From contig JBEWZL010000278.1 of NCBI GenBank assembly GCA_045837725.1, forward strand, positions 486,092-506,091: a DNA stretch of 20,000 nt, in the 5' to 3' direction. The stretch's first letter is position 1. Every line of letters begins with the position of its first letter. The notes under the pieces are model-generated. The model worked only from the letters and a program-made list of their open reading frames with translations, did not search any database and had not been told where the DNA came from. The DNA comes from Vermamoeba vermiformis. Taxonomy: Eukaryota. Below, one piece after another: positions 1 to 17,305 of the stretch. Made by a program: the position numbers and the translations under genes.

Positions 1-939
1 ATGGTACATCTCCGTGTTGTTCTGGCTTGCTCCACACCTTTTTATCTGTCCATAGCGTTAGTTAATGGACCATAGATGGCACCAGCAATATAGTTGTATT
101 ACCTAAATCTAATATATACATGTCGTTGTAATGTAACCGCGACTGGAAGTAGTTGGATCCGCCAAAGATATAAACTTTGTTTTTAATATATACAGCGCCG
201 TGGCCTGATCGCGGCGAAGGTCCTTGGCCTTGAAATTTGTTCGTGGCGTTCTCCCATTCTTTGGTTTCTGCGAGATTTGGTCAGAATTAATTACGAATTC
301 CACTTTGTGATTGTGTCCGAATCGTAATCTCTTATTGATTGAATCCAACATTAAATTTTGATAAAATGGATGGAATAATTCTTCCATCGAATTATTGTTC
401 AAAATTTGTAAAGAAAAGTGTTGTCGGATCGGCCAGAAGCGCATAAACATTGCCGGCTGAAAACTTACTCAGATTAAATATTTGGACGTCGTTGTAATAA
501 GTGCCGTCTCCATCTTCAGAACAATAGCCACCGAAGAATAAAACCAAGTGATCAGCTATTTTTGTCGCAGATCCGGCAGCACGCGCACTTGGTGGTCGAC
601 CATGAGGTTTAAATTTTAACCAGCGCACTAAATAGAAATAAAATACATTAATAAACTAATATTGCGCGACAAGGATAAAGGGCATTAGCGAAACAACAAG
701 AAAGACTCTCGCCAGATGCGCTAATGTATTGTATTGCATAATTAATAGAGCCAAAATATATATTTGCATGCATTGATGAGTAGTTTGCACGAGGGATAAT
801 AAGCATAAAAATTTAAAATGGAAATTTAAAATTACAGATGGGCCAAACCACGCCCGAACAAAAATAAGATAATTCTAATTCGGGACCTACCAGTTTTATC
901 TGCTTTTTTATTTTTTGGGTCTGCCGTCAAGTTGAACAT
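1..939 (-). CDS. Kelch-repeat (beta-propeller) protein, 5' part; continues beyond window start
   Basis: Predicted exons 939-891, 627-469 and 46-1 splice to MFNLTADPKNKKADKTVRWLKFKPHGRPPSARAAGSA...LFFGGY...YYNDVQIFNL-NKKVWSKPEQHGDVP. This shows the Kelch hallmarks W-x5-G-x2-PSAR, hydrophobic-GG, ND..(F/Y) and W. The start codon is uncertain. Confidence 0.8.
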
Positions 940-1262
940 CCAGATTTCTGTCTACTTCATGCTTGATCCAAATAATTCGCTCGAAACCTTTGTACAAAAT
1001 AAATATTGTCTATTGTCTACACAAGAAAGTGAATTCTCTGCTAGTAATCTCCCAAGTGCGGAAGAAGTCGCAAAAGCAGCGTTTTTTCAGGCCATTTTTT
1101 TGGCTGGCGATTTTGGCCCGAATTTTTTTACATGACCGTTACGCGGTTATGGCATTTATACTAGAGTGTTGGAACGATACCACGAATATTTATATTACTG
1201 GGGTTTAATCTGTGCAGGCGACAAGCGATTGTTCTTGGCAACTATATGCAAATCCTTTGTTG

Positions 1263-3820
1263 ATGTACACGAACTCGCTTCCCAACTCGCCTTACCGGCG
1301 TATTGCCCCTCCAACGTCGCCACAAACGCCCATAAATGATACATATTTAACACCAGCAAAGCCACGTACTCTATCACCCCTCACACCGAGTAAATTAAAT
1401 GGAGCGGATTTATCAGTGACGTTGTCTGAACTGCGAAACCAATTGCAAAGTAAAGAGCTGCATTACCTACAAAAAATTAAGGAATTGGAGGAGGATCTCA
1501 AATATGTCAGCGAGAAATATAACGAGCTTGTCGCAGATCCAGAACATCAGAAGTTTTTATCGGTGATCGACCAACTTCAGGTAATTAACATGCAAGTTCT
1601 CGTGCATAAATTAAAAAATAATTATTCAAATATATGGCACGTAAACTAAAACATTTTCACGGTCAGATCAAGATCTCTCAACAACACGACGATTTAAAAA
1701 TGCGTGATGATAGAATCGATGATCTACAAAGGCTAGTCGATGACCAGGGTGCGCGAATGGAAAATTTGGAGGCTAAGTTGAAAGAACAGACGTAAGTTTC
1801 AATCAATTGACTAAAATGATTTAATTCAAGAAATCGAGATATTAAAGATTCGATACTCATTAATCACATTCTATAGGCTGCTTGTTATTCAAAAATATGA
1901 GGAGTTCCTATCGACATCCAAGACATACGCGAGAGCGATTACCGAAAAAGACAAAATAATAGAAAATCTTACAGAGCGATTGAACAATATTACTAAACAA
2001 AGTAAGCTCATAAATACTTATTTTCTTGTAGTTTCGGTTATTCGGTTAGAAAAACACAAAACTTTTGAAATTTCTACGATCGGATCTATTTTAATAATAT
2101 TTAAAGATTCGCAGTGATTAATCAATGGCTAATTGATGCATATTTAAATAGAGGAGGATTCGGAGAGATTAGTCCAATCCGAAATCGAACAGTTGAAGCT
2201 TCAAGTCAAAATTAAAGATAGACAGATCGAGGCAGTTAGTATGCAATATGAAGCAGCGAAGAGTGAATATGATGAATCATTGCACTATTTTGAGCAAATG
2301 ACGCAGAGTTCTCAGAGCAATTTCGATACTCTCAGTAAGCGCATGAACGAGCAAATGGAAGAAATTCTGCTGAAAGACAAACAAGTTGAGGAGCTTAATG
2401 CGCGTGTCAAGCAATTACTTTCGCAAGGTACGTCATGATATTACTAATGGGCGTATTTATACTTATGATTCAATAGCGTACACGGCGAAAAATATGTACG
2501 AGGACTCTGTGCAAGCATTAAATGTTGAGCTCGCGTCCAAGTCCAAGCAACTCACGATCTTGCAAAGCCAAGTCGAAATTCTGAAAATAGAAGCTGCGCA
2601 AAAGCAATCCGAATACGAACTTGCATTGCATCAAGAACGACTCAAGTTAGACGTCAAAAAAGTCGAGAATTTGGAGCGCGAGAAGAACGAACTTAAAGAG
2701 GAAAACAAATCACTCTACGAGAAGTTGAAAGAGCGAGAGACGCAAAGTCAGTTGTTGGCCGTGAAAATCGATTCTGTTGAGTTACAGAAGGACAACATGA
2801 CCAAACAACTCGATGGTAAGGCTTTGATACAAAAATGTACAACGTGTTAATTCTTCAACAGAGTTGCGGCGCGAGGTCAGTCAGCTGCGCGACGAGTTGA
2901 AGCAGAAAGATGAGTTGCTGGTCGTGTACAATCAAAACAACGCGCAGTTGCAGAATGACTTGCAAGGCCTACGGCAGTCGATGACTGAAGTAAAACAGAG
3001 CCACGAGGTTGTAGTAACACCGAGGCGCGTGGTAGAGGAGGTCGTTGTCAGTGTCCCAACGCCGACTGAAGTGATGATGGATCGTCTCGTCGAGCGCCAA
3101 ACTGAAGTCAACGAACAGCCTTCTACAGTCGTAGAAATAGCCTCAGAAGAGCCTCTAAGAGCATCACAGATCGAAGAACAGCAAACAGAGCTAGAATCGA
3201 GTTCTCCCGCTGAAGTGCCTGTCGTGGAATCGTCTTCTGCGGACACGTCTGTAGTTCAGTCTCCGACGGAGCCGAGCGCAGAGACAACAAAACCAACCGA
3301 TGAAATTGGCGTTACTCGCGACGAAGTTAAGCAAGATCAGCCAGATCTTATCGAGGCTACCGCTACCAGCGAGCTTACGGAAAATGGCTCACGTGCTCAA
3401 CACAGATCCGACGACGAAAAAGATAACTCAGAAGAGTCTGTGTCCGAGAGCGAAAGCAGCGAAGAGAGTATGAGCAGCGAGAGCGAAGAGAATCCCAAAG
3501 AATTGAGGGCAAGCAACTCTAGTTCCGTTGCAAGCAGCTCGACTGGCGCCGCATCGAAGTTCAACACGAATCCGGCCAAGGCCGAACCGAAACAGCCTCC
3601 TGTCAAGGTTCAAGCTACAATTACGAAGAACTCCTCGAGGAAAGGGCCTAGCAAGCTATGCGGAGTTTTGATACTGATTTTGTGGCTGTTAGTAAGTTCG
3701 ATCGCGCTTTTTATGGTGAAACCAGAGCTTGTAAGTTCTTTCATCGATATTCCGGCGTCTTCAGAAATACTTTCAACCGTGTATAGTACCGTGTACAATT
3801 ACGTTAAATCTTACCTGTAA
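1263..3820 (+). CDS. Long coiled-coil protein with acidic/Ser-rich region and a single C-terminal transmembrane helix
   Basis: The ORF pieces join through GT-AG introns starting near 1581, 1792, 2002, 2428 and 2815. The product has a Pro/Ser-rich N-terminus, E/K/Q/L heptad-like segments, and the hydrophobic stretch LCGVLILILWLLVSSIALFMV preceded by basic residues. Stop TAA at 3818-3820. Confidence 0.8.
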
Positions 3821-3977
3821 ATAAATTAAAGCACGCAAATCTGAACCTTTTGTTTTGGTGTATCGTTGGAGCATTAACACGGTCATTGTCAAGTCTTTTA
3901 ATTAATAACTACGTTAATCAAAACCGTTGTTTTATTAGTTCGGTTAATTGGGACAGTTATTTATTTCCCGCCGCAAG

Positions 3978-6900
3978 ATGGAAGAGACACAGGGCAAAAA
4001 GAAGCGGAATAAAAGAGGCGGTGGCGTATACGAGCATGGGTTAATAACGGAATATGAGTCAGAACCATCTAAAGACAAAAAGAAAGAGCAAAAATTGGCA
4101 GAATCAACCTATAACGATCTACCAACGATTAATGTGCCAGGGAAAAACGAAGACGCGCCAAATTATATTGAAGATACGCAGACTGAATCAGAGCTGACGA
4201 AAATTGCAAATACAAAAATCTGTAAGGAATTTTAATTTTTGATATATTTTTAAAAGCGGTAGAAGGCATCGTAAATTCGGTTAAAATGTCGAAATATAGA
4301 GTCCAAAAAATCGTTCGATACTAGTTATAGCATTGCTAATTTATTATTTTGGTGCAGCACCGAGATCCACGCCCAGATCGAAAATTGATACTGAACAATT
4401 AAACAAAATATTGGTCAAAATGCCCAAATCTCAGCTCAAGGAGCTAATCACCGACGTTATTAATATTGACGATGAAATGATGATATTGATTAAAAAATAC
4501 GCCGACGCTCAGGCGAACTTGCGCATCCAACCTTTCAAGAAAGATTGGAACAAGGATTATCAAGCGATATTGAGTGAACCCGACAGCGAGAGCAAATTCA
4601 AAAAGCTTTATCATTTAGCCCACGATTTCGTTTACGCTGCCAATACGTTCGTGTCACTTTTGTATCTCCTCGTAATCTCGCTAACCTACGACTTAACAGG
4701 TACGCTAAAATTATCATCTCAGAACTGGCCTTGCCTCCTGACGAAAAAACAATAGAGGTAAGCTATAAACGATAAATTACAATGCATTCTCACACGTACT
4801 TCAGTTGATGGACATTGGAGGTATCGCAGGTGGCACGTAAGTCGAGCACTGCATCGATTATTTAAGATAATAACGTCTCGTAGTAAATTTGTGTGTCAGA
4901 ATATTCTGTTCAAGTTCGTATTGGATTTTGAATTGAAGCAAGGCCTGTGGATGTACGGAGGAGACTCTAGGAACGACGAATATGTACGACGAGCGACCGC
5001 CACTCGTGGTCAATCCATACTAACGTTGCATATATTGTAGGCGATGAAGGCTGCAGCACATGAGCTGAAAGGATTGATTGGCTATTATTCTTGCAACATT
5101 CCAGGTCTCAACTTTCCGTTGATGGCGATGATCGATTACAAAGGATTCCGTGTAATTGCAATGTCCATTCTTCCGATCAACTCAAAAACAATTAAATATG
5201 GTAAGTGTACGAAGCAGCACTGCCTAGTTAGCTAACAAGCTTAATTAGGTTCGAGTGACGCCGGAACAAATGTTCACTGCGACGTACCTGAGCTAAACGA
5301 GAAAATGGATCGTGCTGCAACGATTTTAAACTTGAAGAAGCATGTGATTGGTGCCCGTGAAGGCAGCAACATTCGGTTGAGCAGTCCCGGTGATTTGGAA
5401 GGACATTTGGGTCTCGTAAGTTATTTCAGCACGTGAACTTCGTTGACTTAGTCAACTCATATTATGTAGGACGGGCGATTCTACTTGCTAGATTTCGCAA
5501 GGACCTTACCACCTGAGGGCCCTGATGTTGAGTACGTCCACCATGCTTTAATGAATTTTACTAACGTTTGTAGTCCTAAATTCCGCGAGAGCCGACAGGT
5601 TTATTATAAGCTGCTACGACAAGAGGTAAGCAAATCACTATCAATCTGACTAATACGCATGATTTGCTAACTAGACTTGTAGTTTGTTCGTATTTGGCCA
5701 ACGCCTTTGTGTTCCGATGCATTCACGGCCTGGCAGAAAAATGATCCCGAGAAACAAGTAAGCACACGGTACCATAATGCATTGAACCTAACGTCGTTGT
5801 AGCAAAATGATTTGGAGATAATGAAGGCCACAAAATATTTGATGACACGTGCCATTCCTGATTTTGCGGACAAATTGGACAAACTGTTGCCTAATGAAAG
5901 TGCTAGCAGTCCGTCTTTCGTTATGAATAGGGCTGCTTTCGCTGCCGAATTTGCAAAGATTCACAAGCAGTTTGATTTCTCGCGGGATTTGGACCCGAAC
6001 AAAACCGCTGCAGGAAGTAGCGCGCAGTCTTTGGAGATCAATCACACGATCGAAGAAATGCATCGACATGGTATCAACATCAGACATCTTGGGCTGCTGA
6101 GGACGTTCTCAAGGTCTAAGCCCGTCAAACGATTGCTCTTATTGGAAATGGTGGCACGCGTCATCAAAGACGTTCTGAGGTCTCAAATGAGAAACATTAT
6201 GCGAGAGGTTCGAGTGTTGTCAGAAGAACCGTTCAAGCAGATTGTATTGAAGACGTTCAACTACACTCTTGGCCGCGATCCCCAATCAGCGAAGTTTTGG
6301 GCAATCGTGAAAAATCGACTGGTTCGCAAATTCAAGAAAGCCCTGGCAGACAACGAGCTTAATGTAAGTTAAAGTCTTGTTATTGATAATACTAACACCC
6401 ATAGACCGATTTGCACGATTCGATCAACATGTTCTCGCTATTTTCGCGATTGCAAGAGCTCGTTGGAGTAGAGCTTACGTCAGAAGCGAAGCAAGAGTTG
6501 CGCGATTTCCCTGATAGCTTTGAGTTCGTAAGCTCTGACGTGCTCGAAGTCTATGCCAAGGTCAAGCACTTGAACATTATCGATTATGCCGGTATGTTGT
6601 ATTACGTTCCATATAAGTATTACGTGCTAATTATAATCACAGAGGGCATGGCTCTGTCTTTTATGGCTAAGAAAACTGACGGCAAAAGAGAGCGACTACG
6701 CTTGCTGAAACTCAGTTCACAGAAGTTCGAAAGTGCTTTGCGTGCTCTTCCCGACAGCTTCATGACGCTGTATCAATGGGGTTGCGTGCTCGTAGAAGAA
6801 GCCAATATGAACGTTGCAGCGAAGGCTCAGCAGAGCTTGGAGAAGGCCTGCGAAAAGTTCCGTGAGGCCATTATTATCAACCCGAAATTTCAGGAATGTC

Positions 6901-9900
6901 AACTGCGGCTGGGTGACGCATTGATTCAACTCGCCAAGATGAAAACGACCACCGATGTTAGAAGCAGAGTAATCAAGAAGCTTTACAAACAAGCTAGCGA
7001 AGAGCTCCGCAAATCACTGGACATCAATGTAGACTTCAAAGGTTTCGAGTCGGTCTTCCAACGCATTCAAACAATGTACATTACTGCTTCGGACGACAAA
7101 GAGACTTACAAGCGAAGAAAGATGATGTTCTACGGAATTTCCAAGATCTGCAAGCACCTCTACAATCAATTGCTACAGCATCGAGAGGCTATTCTACGCG
7201 TAGATCAAACTTCCGTAGAAGCACTGGGAAGGCTCGAAGAGATGCAGAAGATTATGGACGAGCACGGAGAGACTTTGAAGGCGATTCAAGACCTTGATTT
7301 TGCAAATGTCAGCAATACGAACAACAAAGAGACTACAGCGACTAGACCGCGTTCAGGATCAACTGGAGGAGTGAATCCATTGCGTGTTTCGGCAAAAGCG
7401 AAGAATCCGTTGTACGTGCCGGGTTTTCGTGGTTCAATTGACATCTTCGGAGCGAAGGCAGCGAACAATAATTATTCGCAGCCAGTAATGAGCAAGTCAA
7501 AGTCTTTAACAGCGACAAACTCCGAAGACAAAGATTTGTACGGTGGTGATCCTCTCTACAACCAAGCAATGGAAGACGATGAATTAAGTCAACTGTTCCG
7601 AGGCGCTTACACCGAGGAATTGTCTCCAGTTCCCAGCACTAGCGGTAATGACACGCTGCCGTCACCTCGTTCAAAGTTTAGCAAAAAGCCAGGCTTACTA
7701 AAGACCAAGTCCACCTCCGCTCCAAAGATTCAGCGACACCGTAGAACTGTGTCTGATCCACTCGGCAAAGAAGATATGACTTACGAAGATCGAGTTGCTT
7801 ATTACAACAGAATAACTACGGAAGTGACTAGCATTTGGAGCGATTCACTGCTTCAATACGCCTCTATGAAGAAGTCGTTTACCTCGGCGGAATCTTTGTT
7901 CACCAAATCAGCCGACGTTTTGACTAAGCTCATCGCCATCGATGCTAAAAATGACGATGTTATTCGTAGAAACGTCGAGTATCTCAAGACTAAAGCAAAG
8001 GGTACGTGCATAGCTCGCTCTAATTCGAGGATCTAATCTCATTCTTGCAGCAAATAAAAAGCTTCACTTCGCCATCTCCGAGCTGTACAAGGTGCTCGAG
8101 AAGCAAGAAAACCATAAGAATGACGAGTCAATGCTGTACGCTTGGGGAGAGTGCTTGTTGGAATACGCGTCGTGCTTTTTCACGGAAATCGAACGGTTCA
8201 CCCAACTGCACGCCGAAGCCGGTCAGAAGTTCGAGCGATTGTTGAAGATATCTTCAACGTATTTGGATAATTATGTTATCAATTTGCTTTGCAAGCAAGA
8301 CAGGTAAGGGTCCTTATTAGTACTCTACGAAAAACAACTAACAAATGTTGTTTCAGAACGGCTCTCGAGCAATTGATCCTGCTCCTTCCTTCATGCCCTT
8401 CGTTCCTGGAAAGAATTAAAGCGTTGAGTGACAAGTTCACTGCGATTAGTTTTGAAGGCAGCTCTCAATTGACAGGTATTATTATTATATTGATTTGTTC
8501 ATGAAACCAAGCGCTAATCCGTGCATCGAAGATGATATCTTGGACCAAATCTTGCCAGTGCTCCCTCACTTGCAAGAAGTCAATTTCAGCTTCGTGAAGT
8601 CTGTCACCGATAGCAGCTTGGCGGTTATTGCCAAGAAAGCGCCGCAATTGCAAAAAATCAACCTTTCCAATTGTACAAATATCACTGACGAGGGTATTCT
8701 CGTGATGTGCAGCAATTTGAAAGAGCTTCAAGAGATCAACTTGGCAAATTCGAGCATCACTGACGAATCCGTGCAACACTTGGTGACACATTTGCCGAGT
8801 AAGTTGATGCTAGCGTATTGTTGACAGCTAACGAATGTCGTTGTAGAGCTGAAGAAGCTGGACTTGGAACGTTGCAAGATTACCAATGCAGCTCTGCGGC
8901 ACATCGCTCAGGCTCGGAGTCTAGCGTGTTTGGAAAGTTTATCGTTCAATCGCTGTTTGAAAATCGAAGACTCAGGCCTTGCTGCGTTTGAAACACGTAA
9001 GTACTGCAGATTAATTTCGCGTTGCTGGGTTAGCTAACTTAAATTCGAAGAAAAATGCCCGAGCCTGAAGAATATCGAATTGAACGGTTGCTCACAGCTC
9101 ACTGTAGAAGCAATTCGTTCTATTCTTGTGTCATTTCCGAACCTCACAAGCTTGTCCCTCGAATCGGACTACAGCATCAATGACGAGTGCGTCAGCATTA
9201 TCAGCGGCTTGACAAAGTTGGAAAAGTTAAATATGCGCAACACCAAGGTCACGAGCAAAGGCTTGGTCCACTTGACTGCTTTGCTCAACTTGACTTATTT
9301 GGATATTTCAAAGTGTCCTATTTTGCCGAAGATCAAGGAGGCCAACAAAGTGCCCGACGCCTCTTCCTCGCAAGATTTCACGCCCGAGGAGCCCGGCAAT
9401 TTCTCTAGTAAGATTGATACCGTATTGCAACGTATTTATACTAACGACGTTTTCAAGCATTGGTACACAATTTCGAGGGAATTGAACGTGAAGAGTTGAT
9501 CGAGGTTGACAAGTCGTTGGAGGCATTCATGGAAGTAGTAGGACCTCGCCTTAACACGCTGTTGATGGCACAGTGTCCTACGATACCGAATTACTACTTC
9601 TCGTTGCTGGGCCGCAAGCTAGTGGGACTGTTGCAGACTCTCGACTTATCAGAGAACCGCGAATTGACTACGGAGGCGCTCATTAGCATCACAAAGGGAT
9701 CTCCAAACTTGGAAAGTCTTACGCTTGACGCGTGTCGGTTGACGGATACCGGTGCATTTGCTATCGCAGACAACTGTCTGAGAATCAAACACTTGAACTT
9801 GTCGCGATGCAGCGTATCGGATAGCGCGTTGAGTTACTTGGGTTTGAAGTTGAACAAGTGTCAGACGTTAATCTTGGCCGGCAATTTTGCCATGACAGAT

Positions 9901-11224
9901 AAGGTAATAGCACTTCGGATAGAATTCCATTAGCTAACTCGTTGCTAGGCAATGACCTCAATCGCCAATCATATGAAGAGCTTGAGACATGTTAATGTGG
10001 GCTCTTGCAACAAAATTAAGGTAAGCCTTCGAATCCACGAGTACGTGATCTAATACACAACTGAAGGACGACGGAATAATAGACTTGCTGTACGCCATTC
10101 CTGAAGTCGAGTTCATCAACTTGGAGAACTGCAACATTTCAAATCGCACTTTACAGAAGATCGGCGCAATTTGCACGAACTTGAAGACACTTATTATTGC
10201 AAGGTGTACTACGATCAATGACGGTGGTATTGAAAACTTGGTGTCCGGCTCCAAGACGTTGCGCAAGCTAGATCTAACTGGACTCAACTTAATCGGTGAT
10301 AGAGTACGTTAATTCAACGGTGGATTGCAAAGTTTGCTAATGTTCTCGTAGGCATTGATCGCCATTGCAAAATATTTGCCGTACTTGGAGCACATTGTGT
10401 TGAAGAACTGCGACAACGTAACTGAAAAGGGTATTGCGACGTTGGAGTCGAACAAATCCTTGAAGTCGATGATATTGCCTGAAAAGGATTTCAAGTTAAT
10501 CAAGGTAGGTTGTCGCTGTTTAGGATAACGAGTATATTAACATCTATCTAGGAACTCGGAAGCGCTTTGAAAGATCCAAAAATCAACACGCTGATCTACA
10601 AACCTATTTTGATCAACTCTGCAGAAAAACGACGAAACCCGTCGGTCGGAGGTAATACACCTGTAACCAACCATTTTATCGATGTTAATTTTTGCTGTAG
10701 AAGCGGAACTGCTTGAAAAGCACGCAACCATTCACAAGCGCCGTAGACAGTTGCGAAAAGAGAGTACTGGCGAATTGCCCGAAATGCCATTACAGTTGTC
10801 AGTCTCTGTTACCTCTGACACGGGCTCTGAACTGTCAACAAGTACCAACTTGACTGATTCTGACTCCACGGCACAGAACTCTCCTCGAGCTTTTCGAATT
10901 AATTCCCCACTTCAATCGAGCAATTCTTCTGTACAGGCTCCCAACTCGCCTCTCTTGACCCCTAGATCTCCTCGCACTTACGTAGATTTCAACACAAAGT
11001 TTACGTACAAAGAACTCAGTGCTAAGGAGAAGCCAAAAGACTGTGATGCTCAGAACTTAGAGGTATGGAAATTCTGCTGTTACTTTCCAATTCTAATATT
11101 CCATCTGTAGAAATACTTGAATGAAGAGGAGTTTATCAAAGTATTTGGTACAACATCTGAAGAGTTCTACAAGTTGCCAAAGTGGCGACAAAATCAAAGG
11201 AAAAAGGACCTAAAGTTGTTTTAA
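3978..11224 (+). CDS. Clu-domain protein with TPR-like helical repeats, RNI/AMN1-type leucine-rich repeats and a C-terminal villin headpiece
   Basis: Clu-type motifs after splicing: DWNKDYQ, HDFVYAA, GIAGG.KF, KAAAHELKG, PLMAMIDYKGFR, YGSSDAG, DLEGH..DGRFYLLDFAR. TPR-like WG..L segments lie at ~6.7-7.1 and ~8.1 kb. LRRs such as LQKINLSNCTNITDEG span ~8.5-10.5 kb. The C-terminus ...NLEKYLNEEEFIKVFGTTSEEFYKLPKWRQNQRKKDLKLF* is a villin headpiece. About 20 short introns. Confidence 0.88.
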
Positions 11225-11809
11225 TTAATTGTAAATAATAGTTGTAAAATGTTTTTAATCAATTTTGTTTTGGATTATCTTCATTATGTAGCTGTGCAGC
11301 ACCTAACTGTCTCCAATTGAGTAATAATGCAGCTACTCAACATGTTGACTGTGGAATTCTGTTGGTGAGAATAAATTTGTGTTTCTTCACTATGAATAAA
11401 TTATGTGTAGTTTTAATTTTTTGCTTTCTCCTCCATGAATACACTTAAAAAATAAATAGCTCACTTTAGTGTATTTCTGAGCATAAATATTTTGTAAGGG
11501 GTTAGGGTTGATAGATTTTGGAGTCTAGTTTTTCATTGTGTGGTAGTACAGTGTATCTGTTGCTATTGGATCTAGTAGAAGGATTTAAAACCGTGTAGTA
11601 CACAATAGTCTGTTCACAGTGGTGGAATTCTTGCAGGAACATTGTCAATTTCCTGTGGGCAAACAAAAAATTCTGTGATGAAATCCTTTACTAAGTTATC
11701 ACTATGGAAATTCGCTGCACCAAACAAATAGTGGCTAAGCCTCCTTTGCTAATTATTGTATTACACTAAGAACAACAGTTGTGACTGTGCTGGTCATGAT
11801 TAAATATTG

Positions 11810-12190
11810 TTGCTGCCAAGTATGAGATTCATCAGCTGTTGGAAGGTGGCAGGTGTATTTGTTAGACTGAAGGACATGATGTTATATTTGAATGAACCCT
11901 CCTCTGTGATGAATGCAGTCTTTTCTTTGGCCTTTCTGCTAGTTCAATGTGATAGTGTGATGTTACAAGATCAAATGTTGAGAAATATTTCATATTTCAT
12001 ATTCTGTCAAATCTCTTGAGGTTGTCATCAACCAAAGGGATTGGAAAGATGTCCTTCTTTGTCACTGTGTTCAATTGTTGATAATCCACACGAAAGTGTT
12101 TTGTTCCACCCTTCTGGAACAACAGGTTTTTTTAACAAATTAAATATGGGCTGTTTTTTTTGGTCCACGTAGAGTTCATGGTTGGACCCT
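11810..12190 (-). mobile_element. Degenerate Ty3/Gypsy LTR-retrotransposon reverse transcriptase fragment
   Basis: Minus-strand translation with frameshifts reads FRVDYQQLNTVTKKDIFPIPLVDDNL..MKYFSTFDL..HYHIELAE..KEKTAFITEEGSFKYNIMSFSLTNTPATFQQLMN. This matches the Gypsy RT consensus VDYR.LN..T.KD.YPLP.ID / YFS.LDL / KTAF.T..G / MPFGL.NAPATFQR.M. It breaks off before the YxDD motif. Confidence 0.9.
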
Positions 12191-12293
12191 ATTATCAGTT
12201 GCTGATTTCCCTCTGTTGAAGAGAAATAAAGAATTTACGAGGGAAAAAGGTAATTCAATGTATTTATTTTTAACGAAATCAAGGAATGACTTG

Positions 12294-13889
12294 TTATTTG
12301 AACTTTTTGAGCAGATCAGGGCAGTCTAATGCCTCTTCAGGTAACCATTCATTGTACTGATTACTCCAACCAGACCACTTCACTAGATATTCATCACCAT
12401 GAACTCCTCTACGTTTGTCTACTAAATCTTCTACCTCATATTCTTCAGTTGATTTTACCTCTGCTGCTTTATACTTGACTTTTCCAGTTTGCAAATCTCC
12501 AGAAATAAATTTGTTGTGACATTGATCAAAATTCCATGCTAAGCATTCTGAACAGAAGCATGGTCTCTTTCAATGTTTGATTGTTCCAACTTGTTCCGAA
12601 AAGATGAAATCATAGGAAGCCTTGATGCCTTTTAAAGGAGTGCAGTCATCTTCTTCATCATCAGAATCATACTCAACCAAAAAAGTGGGGCCACCTGGAA
12701 CAGTATCAAAGTGATCTGCAAGCTCTTGGGCATTATTGATGTGAGCATCATCTTATAAAGTGAATTAGCTCTGGTAAATTAAGGAGTAACTTACTATCTA
12801 GTAAAAATAACCTAGTATTGGATTTCAAAGTTGCACCTCTGCCATCACAAGAACCTTTTCCATGGTATGCAGGATCTACAGCCCATCTGAATCGGAGATG
12901 GAACAGGTTCCAAAACTTGCATATAATGCCACGTGCTTTTGAACCATCTGCATTTTTGGTTGTCCATCGATTGAATTTGAAAGTTTCTTGTCGAATAGCC
13001 AGAGATTCTTTTGGACAACGTGAAGAACTGCAGGACTCGCACCAAAAGGCACATTGATTGCTGTGATTGCACATTTGGGGTGAGCAAAAATCACAGTTGC
13101 AACTGCAATTTCGATGCCAAATTCTGCGTTTTGCATTTAAAAGAACAGCCATACTGTGAAAATTGCTGCAATGGAAACATAGTCCACTCCGTAACGGTTT
13201 TACAACAACATAATTTGGAATCAAGGAGTAAAATGCACTGGCAGAGAAGGCAGGATAATCCTTGTGAGATAGCTGAAGCATTGTAAGTGGCTGTAACAAC
13301 AACAACTATTCAAACTTACACGGCATTCGTTAAACATTGCACAAATTGGCTTTAATCTGTAATGCTTTGGTCTTTTGATCCAAACTCCCTGCTCTTTGAC
13401 TTGAAGAGTGTTTTTCATGTCAGCAGTCTCTACAGTATTGTTGTTGATCCAAGTTATAATAGAACTCTTGAGCTGAGGTTGAATACGTGTAACAGAGTAA
13501 ATGGCACGACTGACATATGGACGCGGATGTTGGTTATTATTGATATCCTCCTGAATAGATCCTTGTAATTCTATTGCTGATTTCACACTCCGCCAATCAA
13601 CGTTGAACAGTGTAGCAAACTGGTCAATTTTGGCTTCAGGCGAAACACATGCTGCTAAAATGCCACGAAATTGACCAGATTTGTGGTGATACTGTGCGAC
13701 TTGGTGCAAGCAACAACTGATGTTGAAACACACTAGAGTTTTTAATTTGGCTGAGACAAAGTCCGATAAACTATCGGAAAAACAAGGTTGCTTGACTACA
13801 TCTGATAAACACTTTGCCCTAGCAGTAATGGGAACTGACATCAGGATGTGTGTAATTGCTTCTATTTGTTGTTTGTAATTTTTTGACAT
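12294..13889 (-). pseudogene. Sola2-like DNA transposase pseudogene with C-terminal chromodomain; internally deleted, one premature stop
   Basis: Introns at 13319-13273 and 12794-12752 (possibly also 13733-13692) join the ORFs. Motifs in order: SAFYSLIP.YV...GLCFHCSN, a Cys-rich stretch, W....YHGKGSCDGRGATLK (12842-12864), I.NA.E, KGIK.SYDF, *KRPCFCSEC, then the chromodomain EYEVEDLVDKR...EYLVKWSGWSNQYNEWLPEEALDCPDLLKKF. In-frame TGA at 12572-12570. The Sola2 assignment rests on my recall of the HGKG.CDG motif. Confidence 0.78.
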
Positions 13890-14056
13890 AGCAGCAAATC
13901 GCAGCGCGGTAACGCGTTAATAGTGACAAAAATAGAACGGAGTTGTGGTGTTCATAAATTAAAAGGTTATATTTTGGTTAATTTGCTAACGGGTCAATTC
14001 TACTGGGGCTAGTTATCGCTGGAATACCGAAATAATTTAATCGCTGACGAATCAAG

Positions 14057-14172
14057 CACCAATGCGTTGAAAATTCGGAAAAATATGTAAAGCATCCAAT
14101 CAGACGTCGTACATAAACACGTGCCTGATCACGTGCTGTTCCGAGCTTGTGATTGGTTGTGAAAAGCACGTG
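14057..14172. promoter_or_regulatory. Candidate bidirectional promoter with CCAAT boxes and three CACGTG motifs
   Basis: CCAAT near 14059 and 14096, inverted ATTGG near 14152, and CACGTG at 14118, 14130 and 14167. It lies between the transposase ATG (-) and the candidate ncRNA (+). Confidence 0.4.
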
Positions 14173-14539
14173 GATGTAGATCGCGAAGAAATTGGGAATT
14201 TATTGATTTTCATTTTGTCATTAATTTTTGACATAGACAACACATGTCACATCTACCAGTTAGTGAAGTCCTCTCTTAGGGGGATATTATTAAAAAATGG
14301 GTCGATCGTACACACGTTGAGATCCCGCTTGCAAGAATGACCGTCACAGGTACGGACATAAATATTAATACTATACATATTGCGATCCGTTGGAAAATAT
14401 TGCGCTTGTCATAAATTTCATTTCGTTTTACTAAATTTAGAACATCAACAACAACGCGCCACCGCGCTGCAACTCATATAATTTTTACTGTTTAATTGTC
14501 TAATTGGTGGCGAATAACTTTTGGCACGCTATATTTTTC

Positions 14540-16000
14540 GTTGTGGTGGCTCGATCTGTCAAACGTCAAAACAGATCATCGCATCGGGTTATCAAGGTAA
14601 ATAACCGATTTAAAAATGATACGACAGTCAAATATTGATGATTTTAGAATATTCCACGTAGCACGAGCAAACAAGTAAGCTATTAATTTAATTAAATCAT
14701 TTGAAATTCATCGCATCGAAACGCGGTAAAGCGCTACGATTCGTTAATATTATATTATGATTATTCAGTTACCATTATTAACATTAGTTAATAAAAGTAT
14801 TTTGCACGGTCATGTTTCAACACCGCCAAATCCCAAAGCTTGACAGCGAAGAATCGCAGTAAGTTACGTCTTTATTTAATACGAGTATACAAAATTAACA
14901 ATTATCTAACTGTGCAGATTGAACGGCGTGGCTGCGTATAAATAGCACGATCTGTTTCACACGTCAAACCCCTGTCCGTTTACACGTCGTCTACACTGCC
15001 TGTAAGTATTTTTTTACCATGAATGTAATAATAAACCAGCTAAATACGTTATTACGTAGTATACACGGCAGTGGTGACTGTTAATTCGACTGCCTAGATT
15101 GTTCAATGTTCCGTTCGGAACGCTACATCGCTGACATGTCACGAATCGCTTGGCGTGTTATGTAAGATCAATTATTTCGTTCAATAACATTTATTAATAG
15201 CACTAATAGAGTTGGCTGCGCCACGAAACGTTTCGCGCATCACGGATCCCTCTCTTTTTGCGTAAAACGAACGCGAGAATGTCTTGCAATCGCCGCTGTT
15301 GCTGCAGAAATAGATGGCAATACATTAAACCTTAGAAAACGGGCATTCGTAAGTTGTTATGAACGATCAATTCATTCAATTTATACACTAACACCGATCT
15401 GAGCAGCGTCTCAGCCGCGCGATCTGCGATCACGTCGCCGTTCTGAACAACCAGTCGCGTGGGACTATTGAAAGCATAAATAGATTTGAATGCTCTATTT
15501 TCATTGTAATGAAAACCTGCAAGCTGGTTCGTTCACGCGATCCGTTTCGAGTTTAGTGGCCACGAAGCCTTGCTGTAAGTAAAACCCTTGTCAAGTGATA
15601 TTTAATTGATATTAATACACTATTTAGGTAAGTAACAACTTGCTGCGGTTAGCAATTCACGTGTGAGAGTCGCGACTCGATCGAGGATGTTGCGCGATCT
15701 GAGACGGCTCAGGACGAATCTTTTTGGTAAGAATTTATTGCTAACAATGATTAAAATACAATGTTATTAATGCATTGACTTTAGCACTCGGTGCTGTCTT
15801 CGGGCGGCTGATCCAACTATGGTTCGTTGATCGCGATCCATTTCGTGTTGCGTTAATGCCACATCGCTCAGTATCATGGCCATATCGTGTGCACAACCGA
15901 CTGCTACGTCATTAGAACACCGTGCCTTTCGTGGAATTAGAATTGATGTGTGTAACTTTACCTTGCAACAGATCGAGGTGCGTGGAGTTTTGCTTATTTT
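14540..16000 (+). ncRNA. Candidate spliced, structured long non-coding RNA (7 predicted introns); ends approximate
   Basis: AT-rich GTAAG/GTAAA...AG introns at 14597-14647, 14675-14768 (or 14787), 14859-14917, 15002-15059, 15162-15209, 15349-15406, 15575-15627 and 15727-15784. The first is the weakest; the other seven have GTAAG donors. They alternate with GC/CpG-rich exons. Exons 14918-15001 and 15060-15161 have stops in all three frames. Many stems include G-U pairs, and one has a C(UUCG)G loop. Confidence 0.62.
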
Positions 16001-16016
16001 TATTTATTGTATACGC

Positions 16017-16118
16017 GAATCGGGACGCGTTAAAGCGCCCCGATTCCCAATTTCAGCCTGTAATTTGACTATTATTGGCAAATTAACAGAATCGGGGCGC
16101 GTTAAAGCGCTCCGATTT
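16017..16118. repeat. Two copies of a 30-nt hairpin motif (12-bp stem, GTTAAA loop)
   Basis: GAATCGGGACGC-GTTAAA-GCGCCCCGATTC at 16017-16046 and GAATCGGGGCGC-GTTAAA-GCGCTCCGATTT at 16089-16118. Confidence 0.9.
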
Positions 16119-16172
16119 CCTATTTTGCGTAGATTATTAAACAATTTCTAATAATTTATGGAATTGAGACAC

Positions 16173-16463
16173 TATAGTAGGCTTCTGGGTTATAAAAACC
16201 CACAGGTTATAGAGTTTAAAGAGGCCTTAAACTCGTTTTTTGTTGAACTTTTTCGCAAACATTCTTTTTATTTAAACTCATGTTCAAAATAGCTAAGTCA
16301 AACAAGTTAAATAGAATAATATAAAATGGGTCACTTTGTTTTATTATAGTAGGCTTCTGGGTTATAAAAACCCCCTGGTTATAGAGTTTAAAGTCCCTTC
16401 AAACTGTTTTTTTGTCAAACTTTTCTGCACAGATTTTAGAAATTGATAGTAGCTAAGAACAAG
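16173..16463. repeat. Diverged direct duplication, period 172 bp
   Basis: TATAGTAGGCTTCTGGGTTATAAAAACCC...GGTTATAGAGTTTAAAG begins at both 16173 and 16345. Similarity continues to TAGCTAAG at about 16290 and 16450. Confidence 0.9.
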
Positions 16464-16559
16464 AAGAGCATTCATATATGTAAAAGGGCTTGGCCATATA
16501 GGGCTAGCCCTGCAGAACCTGACAATAAATAGATATTTGAGTAGGAATTATGCGTGGTG

Positions 16560-16616
16560 ATTTTTACTTAGGAAAATTTTTACTTAGGAAAATTTTACTA
16601 AAGGAAATTTTTACTT
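16560..16616. repeat. Short tandem repeat, ~16-bp unit TTTTTACTTAGGAAAA, ~3.5 copies
   Basis: Read directly: tttttacttaggaaaa tttttacttaggaaaa ttttactaaaggaaa tttttactt. Confidence 0.9.
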
Positions 16617-16684
16617 GAGAAAAACTGATCCACCCGTGTAAGTTGGAGGATTCAAAAAAACTAAGGCTCAGTGGACAGTCTTAT

Positions 16685-16921
16685 GAAAAAATAAAGTCCT
16701 TAGGGGTCGTCTCCACGCGGAGACGATCTCGAGAAAAAACAAAGTCCTTAGGGGTCGTCTCCACGCGGAGACGATCTCGAGAAAAAACAAAGTCCTTAGG
16801 GGTCGTCTCCACGTGGAGACGATCTCGAGAAAAAACAAAGTCCGTAGGGGTCGTCTCCACGCGGAGACGATCTCGAGAAAAAACAAAGTCCGTAGGGGTC
16901 GTCTCCACGCGGAGACGATCT
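16685..16921. repeat. Tandem array of five 48-bp units, each containing a strong stem-loop
   Basis: Unit GAAAAAACAAAGTCCTTAGGGGTCGTCTCCACGCGGAGACGATCTCGA starts at 16685, 16733, 16781, 16829 and 16877. The core palindrome is TCGTCTCC-ACGC-GGAGACGA. Confidence 0.97.
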
Positions 16922-17305
16922 GGCAAAAAAACTATGGATCGGCCGTCTACATCTGACTGAAAAAACAAGTCGAACGAGTCGCTACGGCAATCTGCAGCGA
17001 TAAAAGTTAATAAATTGGATTGTATTTATTAAATAATTAATATAACCGGTACTTACCAAATAAAGAGTGGGCGAGCACGTTTTAAATCGTGGATCGGTTC
17101 TAAAATACAAGATTAGATTAATAAATAAACATAAATTAAATTTAATCTCAATGCAAACCGCCGCGAATATGTAAATGATCGGAACCAATTTGTATCCGGA
17201 TTCAAAAATAAATAAAAAATTAAAATTACACTTACTATTAGCGCCAAGTAGTGTTGCTTTCGTTATTCGTGAATAAATAATACCAAGCCGGCACGAACAT
17301 GACCT

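Follow-up and report, generated by a model that had tools for sequence, protein, structure and literature searches.

Positions 13889-12137 on the minus strand of the window, by which we mean the whole 20,000-nucleotide stretch of Vermamoeba vermiformis DNA analyzed here, are probably what is left of a eukaryotic gene of the DNA-transposon type, in a copy that is decayed and non-autonomous. The gene belongs to a family of DDD enzymes that end in a chromodomain. Intact members of the family begin with a helical N-terminal region, followed by a Cys/His-rich cluster, an RNase H-fold core with three aspartates, the Cys knuckle (WPCxCxxC..C) and, after a linker, the chromodomain. We observed the order of the domains, the conservation of the fusion across relatives, the fold of the core and an internal deletion in the window copy. 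Taken alone, the locus is an unremarkable dead copy; what is of interest is the family.

Layout of the gene and its putative introns

The list of open reading frames contained three on the minus strand, at 13916-13221, 13305-12748 and 12752-12294. Between 13889 and 12294, the reading is continuous over three exons once two GT..AG gaps, of 29 and 43 nt, are removed. The features of the locus and of its immediate neighbour are the following.

13320-13889, minus strand: exon 1, which starts at the ATG (13889-13887) and holds the mostly helical N-terminal region of 190 codons
13291-13319, minus strand: putative intron 1, 29 nt, GTAAGT..CAG
12795-13290, minus strand: exon 2, with the Cys/His-rich cluster, the deletion junction and the remnant of the catalytic core
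about 13179-13006, minus strand: Cys/His-rich cluster, inside exon 2
12918-12919, minus strand: junction of an internal deletion; in comparison with the relative P0042, the catalytic core is short of 158 codons
12841-12864, minus strand: HGKGSCDG motif, with the third conserved Asp at codon 12846-12844
12752-12794, minus strand: putative intron 2, 43 nt, GTAAGT..AG
12297-12751, minus strand: exon 3, followed by the TAA at 12296-12294
12570-12572, minus strand: in-frame TGA within exon 3
12519-12566, minus strand: C-terminal Cys knuckle (RPCFCSEC...C), family motif (W)PCxCxxC...C
12297-12440, minus strand: HP1-like chromodomain, the last 48 codons before the TAA
12137-12293, minus strand: non-coding tail, still within the repeated unit; a further copy seen in the DNA run departs from this sequence just left of 12136
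11800-12131, minus strand: frameshifted relic of a Ty3/Gypsy reverse transcriptase, a neighbour outside the element

Removal of 13319-13291 joined frame 1 to frame 2 in phase, removal of 12794-12752 did the same for frames 2 and 3, and with both gaps removed the alignment to the relatives was colinear again. The closest relatives, P0001 and P0042 (the latter a 90% cluster-mate of the former), end exactly at putative intron 2. Frame 3 (12752-12294) is interrupted solely by the in-frame TGA and terminates at the TAA. An earlier reading of this DNA, made from the letters and their open frames (the sequence-only reading), had proposed 12794-12752 as an intron and had described one frame that runs from HGKGSCDG through RPCFCSEC into a chromodomain and is broken by one TGA. 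This description was confirmed at the stated coordinates, and the putative intron is supported by the phase of the joined frames and by the restored alignment. The other gap, 13319-13291, was absent from that reading. The region encoded by exon 1 is common to the relatives P0005, P0006, P0012 and P0020 and to a metagenomic locus (L001); in a tblastn comparison, P0020 and P0012 matched the window at 13778-13311.

Two 46-nt GT..AG segments of a host gene (10021-10066 and 10506-10551) are skipped by RNA reads of a related strain. Short introns in the element would fit this genome, and we regard those of the element as putative. The RNA runs X5-X7 contributed 7-12 reads per run, which were 90-95% alike (one read 95-99%) and all fell on the host gene; none fell on the element, which has no bearing on its expression. 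The plus-strand host gene at 8456-10528 is of the leucine-rich-repeat type, and its 46-nt introns are backed by reads of the strain that is 90-95% alike.

A C-terminal chromodomain of the HP1 type

The last 48 codons of the reconstructed gene matched the Pfam Chromo family (PF00385) with 50.9 bits (E = 1.5e-13), the curated cut-off being 25.1 bits. The best matches among solved sequences were CBX5, CBX1, CBX3 and Drosophila HP1 (E = 3e-12 to 7e-9), and a search of PDB sequences with the family profile ranked chromodomain matches likewise. The tyrosine of EYEVE and the tryptophans of KW and GW align to the Y, W and F of CBX5 and CBX1, positions that we take, from the HP1 structures, to form the aromatic cage for methyl-lysine. 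Judged by these alignments, the tail is a true HP1-like chromodomain. The sequence-only reading had called it a chromodomain with residues resembling an aromatic cage, which these alignments support.

The likeness to CBX5 (2rvl_A), CBX1 (1ap0_A) and Drosophila HP1 (1kna_A) comprises the aromatic triad and also the tail ..N.W.PE..LDCP.L.., which aligns as well. The context differs. HP1 and CBX proteins are adaptors composed of a chromodomain and a chromoshadow domain, whereas the chromodomain of the window gene is the tail of an enzyme. One relative, P0041, carried a precomputed chromo-shadow label (PF01393); we rejected this assignment, as a Pfam scan at E <= 0.01 returned two Chromo stretches instead.

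The fusion in relatives

A HMMER search of 1.84 billion representative sequences with the 185-aa middle piece of the protein identified 38 relatives, all of them ORF calls from metagenome or run assemblies; a word-index search with the 185-aa piece and with longer targets gave no match. We scanned ten of the 38 with Pfam. Chromo was present at the C-terminus of three (P0003, P0025 and P0032), P0014 stopped 12 residues into a chromodomain-like start, and the remaining six were fragments that end earlier. A further search added the clade of P0003, with four proteins. A profile search, which added the clade of P0025, returned 13 proteins, 11 of them with a precomputed PF00385 label; the two others were P0030, which has a garbled C-terminus, and P0064, which is distant.

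The alignment of sequences that reach the Cys knuckle comprised 19 proteins, the window copy and L001, a count of 21 that leaves out the fragments ending before the knuckle as well as P0030 and P0064. In all 21, the motif (W)PCxCxxC..C is followed by a linker and a chromodomain. This chromodomain is complete in 20, each with an aromatic residue at all three cage positions, and cut in the remaining one. The sequences fall into a first clade with the window copy, P0001, P0042, P0014 and L001, a second with P0025, P0032 and P0054-P0063, and a third with P0003, P0039, P0040 and P0041, in which two chromo-type stretches stand in tandem. Within one clade, identity over the whole protein including the chromodomain is 56-74%. 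Near-identical cluster members were found on separate contigs, in clusters of 8, 13 and 14 members.

According to this alignment, the chromodomain fusion is a family trait and not an accident of the locus. The sequence-only reading had reported the in-frame fusion from the window and had named a lack of the chromodomain in other members as a refutation; it is carried by every relative that extends to the knuckle. The distant protein P0064 (677 aa) matched the catalytic core with an hhalign probability of 95.4% and keeps the three acidic positions. Since it is without a chromodomain, the wider superfamily includes chromodomain-less members.

A scan of metagenomes located two loci (L001 and L002), which proved to be one and the same locus and so provided no independent insertion sites. 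At L001 4557-4605 (L002 221-269), the transposase-like frame shifts by one base in an A-rich run, identically in two contigs from different samples; the cause may be a true frameshift, an error in the homopolymer or programmed frameshifting. At L002 867-1981 (minus strand), two long ORFs on the opposite strand lie directly downstream of the chromodomain gene. One of them resembles, by eye, a PD-(D/E)XK nuclease, a type of protein often paired with an AAA-ATPase-like domain.

Fold and active site of the catalytic core

Pfam scans of the pieces from the window and of relatives assigned the core to no family even at E 10, and a profile search of PDB sequences with the family returned chromodomains and no match to the core. 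An AlphaFold2 model of the relative P0025, made from a 22-sequence alignment, reached a pLDDT of 76.6 and a pTM of 0.69. In an exhaustive VIA-align search, residues about 132-322 of this model superposed on DDE cores, namely those of RSV integrase (7jn3_A; Z 11.2, rmsd 2.9, 148 aligned), Mos1 transposase (4mdb_A; Z 11.1), MMTV integrase (7usf_A; Z 11.1), Metnase (3k9j_A; Z 10.5), IstA (8b4h_A; Z 9.9) and Sleeping Beauty (5cr4_B; Z 9.4). Altogether 23 chains scored at Z >= 8; unrelated models typically peak at Z 7-8, and the P0025 scores lie above this background, not overwhelmingly so. Foldseek against the PDB with the same model listed chromodomains and weak RNase H rows only.

The three aspartates lie in the motifs R.DF.EN, S/T-D-G..QHF.N and HGKG.CD. 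They are invariant in seven of seven aligned sequences and conserved in the other clades, and in the last motif the H, G, K, G, C and D are likewise invariant in all seven. In the P0025 model, the first Asp follows strand 149-154 (strand 1), the second follows strand 233-239 (strand 4), and the third is at the start of helix 278-295. As modelled, the three occupy the positions that are canonical for a DDD/E triad. The protein upstream of the chromodomain thus appears transposase-like, with a predicted DDE/D transposase-integrase fold in the intact relative P0025. The sequence-only reading had called this part of the window gene a transposase. The call is supported for the relative, with its predicted RNase H-like fold; the window copy is without two of the three catalytic aspartates.

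The N-terminal 190 residues were modelled as helical (AlphaFold2, pLDDT 73.9). The best Z in a fold search with them was only 5.5, and the helix-turn-helix proteins KorB, Spo0J and RptR appeared among unrelated matches at Z 4.5-4.8. We claim no DNA-binding fold for the region. Features from a language model pointed to the Pfam family DUF7869 (PF25273), with a similarity of 0.88 for a piece from the window and of 0.95-0.96 for P0025, where 17 of 30 matches belonged to this family. PF25273 itself gave no match at E <= 1 in the window pieces, at E <= 10 in six relatives, or at E <= 1 in a further eight sequences, and DUF7869 was not mentioned in the full-text literature that we searched. We treat the link as a lead from feature similarity only.

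The window copy is an internally deleted relic

Comparison with P0042 revealed that the window copy is dead and internally deleted. Window positions 12996-12919 correspond to P0042 residues 2-27, and 12918-12811 to residues 186-221 by tblastn (residues 185-228 by BLASTP). The 158 codons in between, P0042 residues 28-185 or 474 bp, are missing, and with them the first two catalytic Asp motifs, so that the triad of the window copy is incomplete and the third Asp (HGKGSCDG) alone remains. With two aspartates deleted, nothing at the window locus can act as a transposase, and the 474-bp deletion together with the TGA marks the locus as a non-functional deletion derivative. The sequence-only reading had missed both the deletion and the death of this copy. 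Internal deletions are common in non-autonomous DNA transposons.

The two sides of the junction have different properties. Identity to P0042 is 19/26 upstream and 42/44 downstream, the observed/expected (o/e) ratio of CpG is 0.58 upstream and 0.22 downstream, and the contig depth in the DNA run is about 509 upstream and 659-882 downstream, the raised depth being limited to the downstream part, 12138-12938. The window copy may be a hybrid of two diverged copies, or it may have arisen by a template switch during repair.

Ends, copies and surroundings of the element

The divergence of the other copy in the DNA run left of 12136 places the 3' boundary of the element at about 12137. The raised depth of 12138-12938 (659-882, in comparison with about 510-537) goes together with breaks in the unitigs and a loose end at 12136, and depth and breaks are signs of a repeat. 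The copy number looks low: at >= 90% identity, there is room for no more than about one additional copy of the 3' part. A search for terminal inverted repeats in the window gave only 9-nt chance matches, and in L001 nothing convincing. No target-site duplication was seen, the ends of the element being undefined and independent copies to compare being absent. An 18-nt GC-rich inverted repeat (13901-13918 and 14453-14470, 89% complementary) has one arm just upstream of the ATG of the element and the other 534 nt further out; it has no match at the 3' end of the element.

About 160 bp downstream of the chromodomain, on the same strand, begins the relic of a Ty3/Gypsy reverse transcriptase. It matched the Ty3 reverse transcriptase 4ol8_A with E = 2.3e-6 and Pfam RVT_1 only with E = 0.072. 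The relic contains a single CpG (o/e 0.09). The CpG o/e ratio of the element is 0.22-0.58, that of the host genes (1-10600) is 1.23, and that of 13890-16000 is about 1.6; thus the depletion is specific to the two repeat relics. It is compatible with methylation of repeats and no proof of it. The ratio for the longer segment 13890-17600, 1.5-1.7, is above that of the host genes.

The sequence-only reading had taken the position beside a CpG-depleted Gypsy relic as fitting a preference for such targets. The relic is real and depleted, but it is a single anecdote and borders the element on one flank only. Insertion of the element into a Gypsy element is not supported: Pfam searches of the 2.8 kb upstream of the element (13917-16700) found no retroelement homology, and only one flank is a retroelement.

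Further repeats lie upstream. Segment 16143-16400 has a depth of about 8350 in the DNA run, in comparison with about 510 elsewhere, and a pair of 91-nt direct repeats (16173-16263 and 16345-16435) is found there, 172 nt apart and with 84% of their letters in common. This has the look of a repeat in many copies, either dispersed or satellite. A 29-nt inverted repeat (86% complementary, arms 42 nt apart) occupies 16018-16117, and 14713-14749 holds a third copy related to its arms; in one contig of the DNA run, the spacer of the inverted repeat consists of other letters. At 16685-16932, an open frame contains a tandem array of a 48-nt unit (5.2 copies with 96% matches), which encodes a 16-residue Arg/Ser-rich repeat.

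Alternative explanations

Instead of a mobile-element gene, the family could be a host chromatin protein domesticated from a transposase, with the window holding a pseudogenised paralogue. We consider this unlikely, although it would account for the missing terminal inverted repeats and target-site duplications, the low depth, the 56-74% identity that extends over the protein and its chromodomain within a clade, and the occurrence of L001/L002 as a single locus between ordinary-looking genes. A domesticated gene does not readily explain several diverged paralogous clusters with near-identical members on separate contigs. The window copy, moreover, has an internal deletion of the type common in non-autonomous DNA transposons plus a stop codon, and it is CpG-depleted like the adjoining retroelement relic in a region that is otherwise rich in CpG. 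Domesticated transposases often lose catalytic aspartates; in this family, all three are kept in every intact relative.

Two other explanations start from known integrases. The chromodomain might belong to the neighbouring Ty3/Gypsy (chromovirus-like) relic, its in-frame join to the upstream gene being accidental. The relic is close and on the same strand, and chromovirus integrases end in chromodomains (as stated in passages of PMC10799480). This explanation is already contradicted and retains hardly any probability: in 21 of 21 cases from other assemblies, the DDD core is succeeded by the knuckle, the linker and the chromodomain, and the proteins have no reverse transcriptase or rve domain, and the other copy in the DNA run shares 12138-12938 and diverges exactly where the reverse transcriptase relic starts. 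A chromovirus chromodomain, furthermore, comes after the reverse transcriptase and integrase, and here it comes before the reverse transcriptase. Very improbable, too, is a larger element of the self-synthesising or integrase type (Maverick/Polinton, Ginger-like) with this protein as its integrase. Retroviral integrase cores are among the best structural matches, and integrases of Mavericks and adintoviruses can carry chromodomains (passages of PMC10799480 and PMC8502044), but Mos1 and Metnase match the core no less well than integrases do, and neither rve (PF00665) nor another integrase family matched at E 10. The surroundings argue against such an element too: the 2.8 kb upstream (13917-16700) have no Pfam match, L001 is by eye without recognisable polymerase, capsid or ATPase ORFs, and viral contigs, when scanned, contained no relative.

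Relation to known systems and possible function

A decayed copy of a DNA-transposon-type gene, the reading that we prefer, shares features with several known systems. Chromovirus (Ty3/Gypsy) integrases likewise have a C-terminal chromodomain on a DDE enzyme of a mobile element, which has been proposed to guide insertions to heterochromatin (Gao et al. 2008, as cited in passages of PMC12477816 and PMC10799480). Unlike chromoviruses, the window family is without reverse transcriptase, RNase H and rve domains, and its chromodomain is closest to those of cellular HP1 and CBX proteins. The chromovirus order within one polyprotein (reverse transcriptase, RNase H, rve, chromodomain) was not found at the window locus, where the chromodomain precedes the reverse transcriptase relic. 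Maverick/Polinton elements and adintoviruses are DNA elements that also encode an integration enzyme ending in a chromodomain (reported in parts of PMC10799480 and PMC8502044). Theirs are rve-type integrases in virus-like elements of 15-20 kb, whereas the gene of the window family is compact, at about 2-2.5 kb, and has a Cys-rich cluster that is its own, the HGKG.CD motif and no rve match.

With the Tc1/mariner cores (Mos1, Metnase, Sleeping Beauty), the family shares a compact RNase H fold in which the third acidic residue lies about 40 residues past the second, with no large insertion domain. In contrast to this likeness, there is no detectable sequence similarity, and the flanking domains (Cys cluster, Cys knuckle and chromodomain) differ. 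The sequence-only reading had called the transposase Sola2-like, a label that we keep as a candidate only; the likeness to this group is that of a eukaryotic transposase with a DDD triad outside the classic Pfam families. Sola2 elements were reportedly described as DDD transposons by Bao and colleagues in 2009. The group has a DDD triad, a 4-bp target duplication and group-specific termini; three conserved aspartates are present in the relatives of the window copy.

Our search of the full-text literature, with Repbase Reports, subscription journals and supplements outside its scope, found no chromodomain on a DDD cut-and-paste transposase. In the same literature, chromodomains were described solely on retroelement and Maverick-type integrases, and chromodomain and Sola2 were never linked, their co-mentions standing apart and in unrelated content. 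GingerRoot transposases were checked for a chromodomain by the authors who described them, and had none (PMC6839031). An earlier Repbase note on such a fusion may exist. Guidance of integration by a chromodomain is a known strategy of chromoviruses and Mavericks, and its presence here in another enzyme would be a new variant of it.

As to how the enzyme may work, we infer mobility, catalysis, binding of histone marks and choice of target from the domains. The core would cut and join DNA as mariner transposases and retroviral integrases do, and the chromodomain would tether the enzyme to nucleosomes with methylated H3 lysine. The family probably docks onto silent chromatin. Such tethering could bias insertion toward silent, repeat-rich chromatin, resulting in heterochromatin-directed integration, or could help the enzyme to reach its own silenced copies. 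More tentatively, we suggest a specific history, which we regard as possible without favouring it: a compact DDD cut-and-paste family captured an HP1-type chromodomain, kept it through at least three clades and reads H3K9/K27 methylation with it. After chromoviruses and Mavericks, chromodomain-guided integration would then have arisen a third time, independently, and for the first time among classical cut-and-paste elements. Reading of H3K9/K27 marks might then allow landing in heterochromatic 'safe havens', or mobilisation of the element's own silenced copies.

Chromodomain-guided integration is a standard example of mobile elements picking 'safe' chromatin, for which LTR retrotransposons are the documented case and Maverick-type integrases a suggested one. 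If our interpretation is true, an enzyme lineage of quite another kind came to this solution as well, and the family would offer a simple system, one protein and two ends, in which a histone-mark reader biases the integration of DNA. Because the family is invisible to Pfam except for its chromodomain, its members are likely mislabelled as chromodomain or HP1-like host proteins. The fusion would also suggest a route by which such transposases seed new chromatin proteins.
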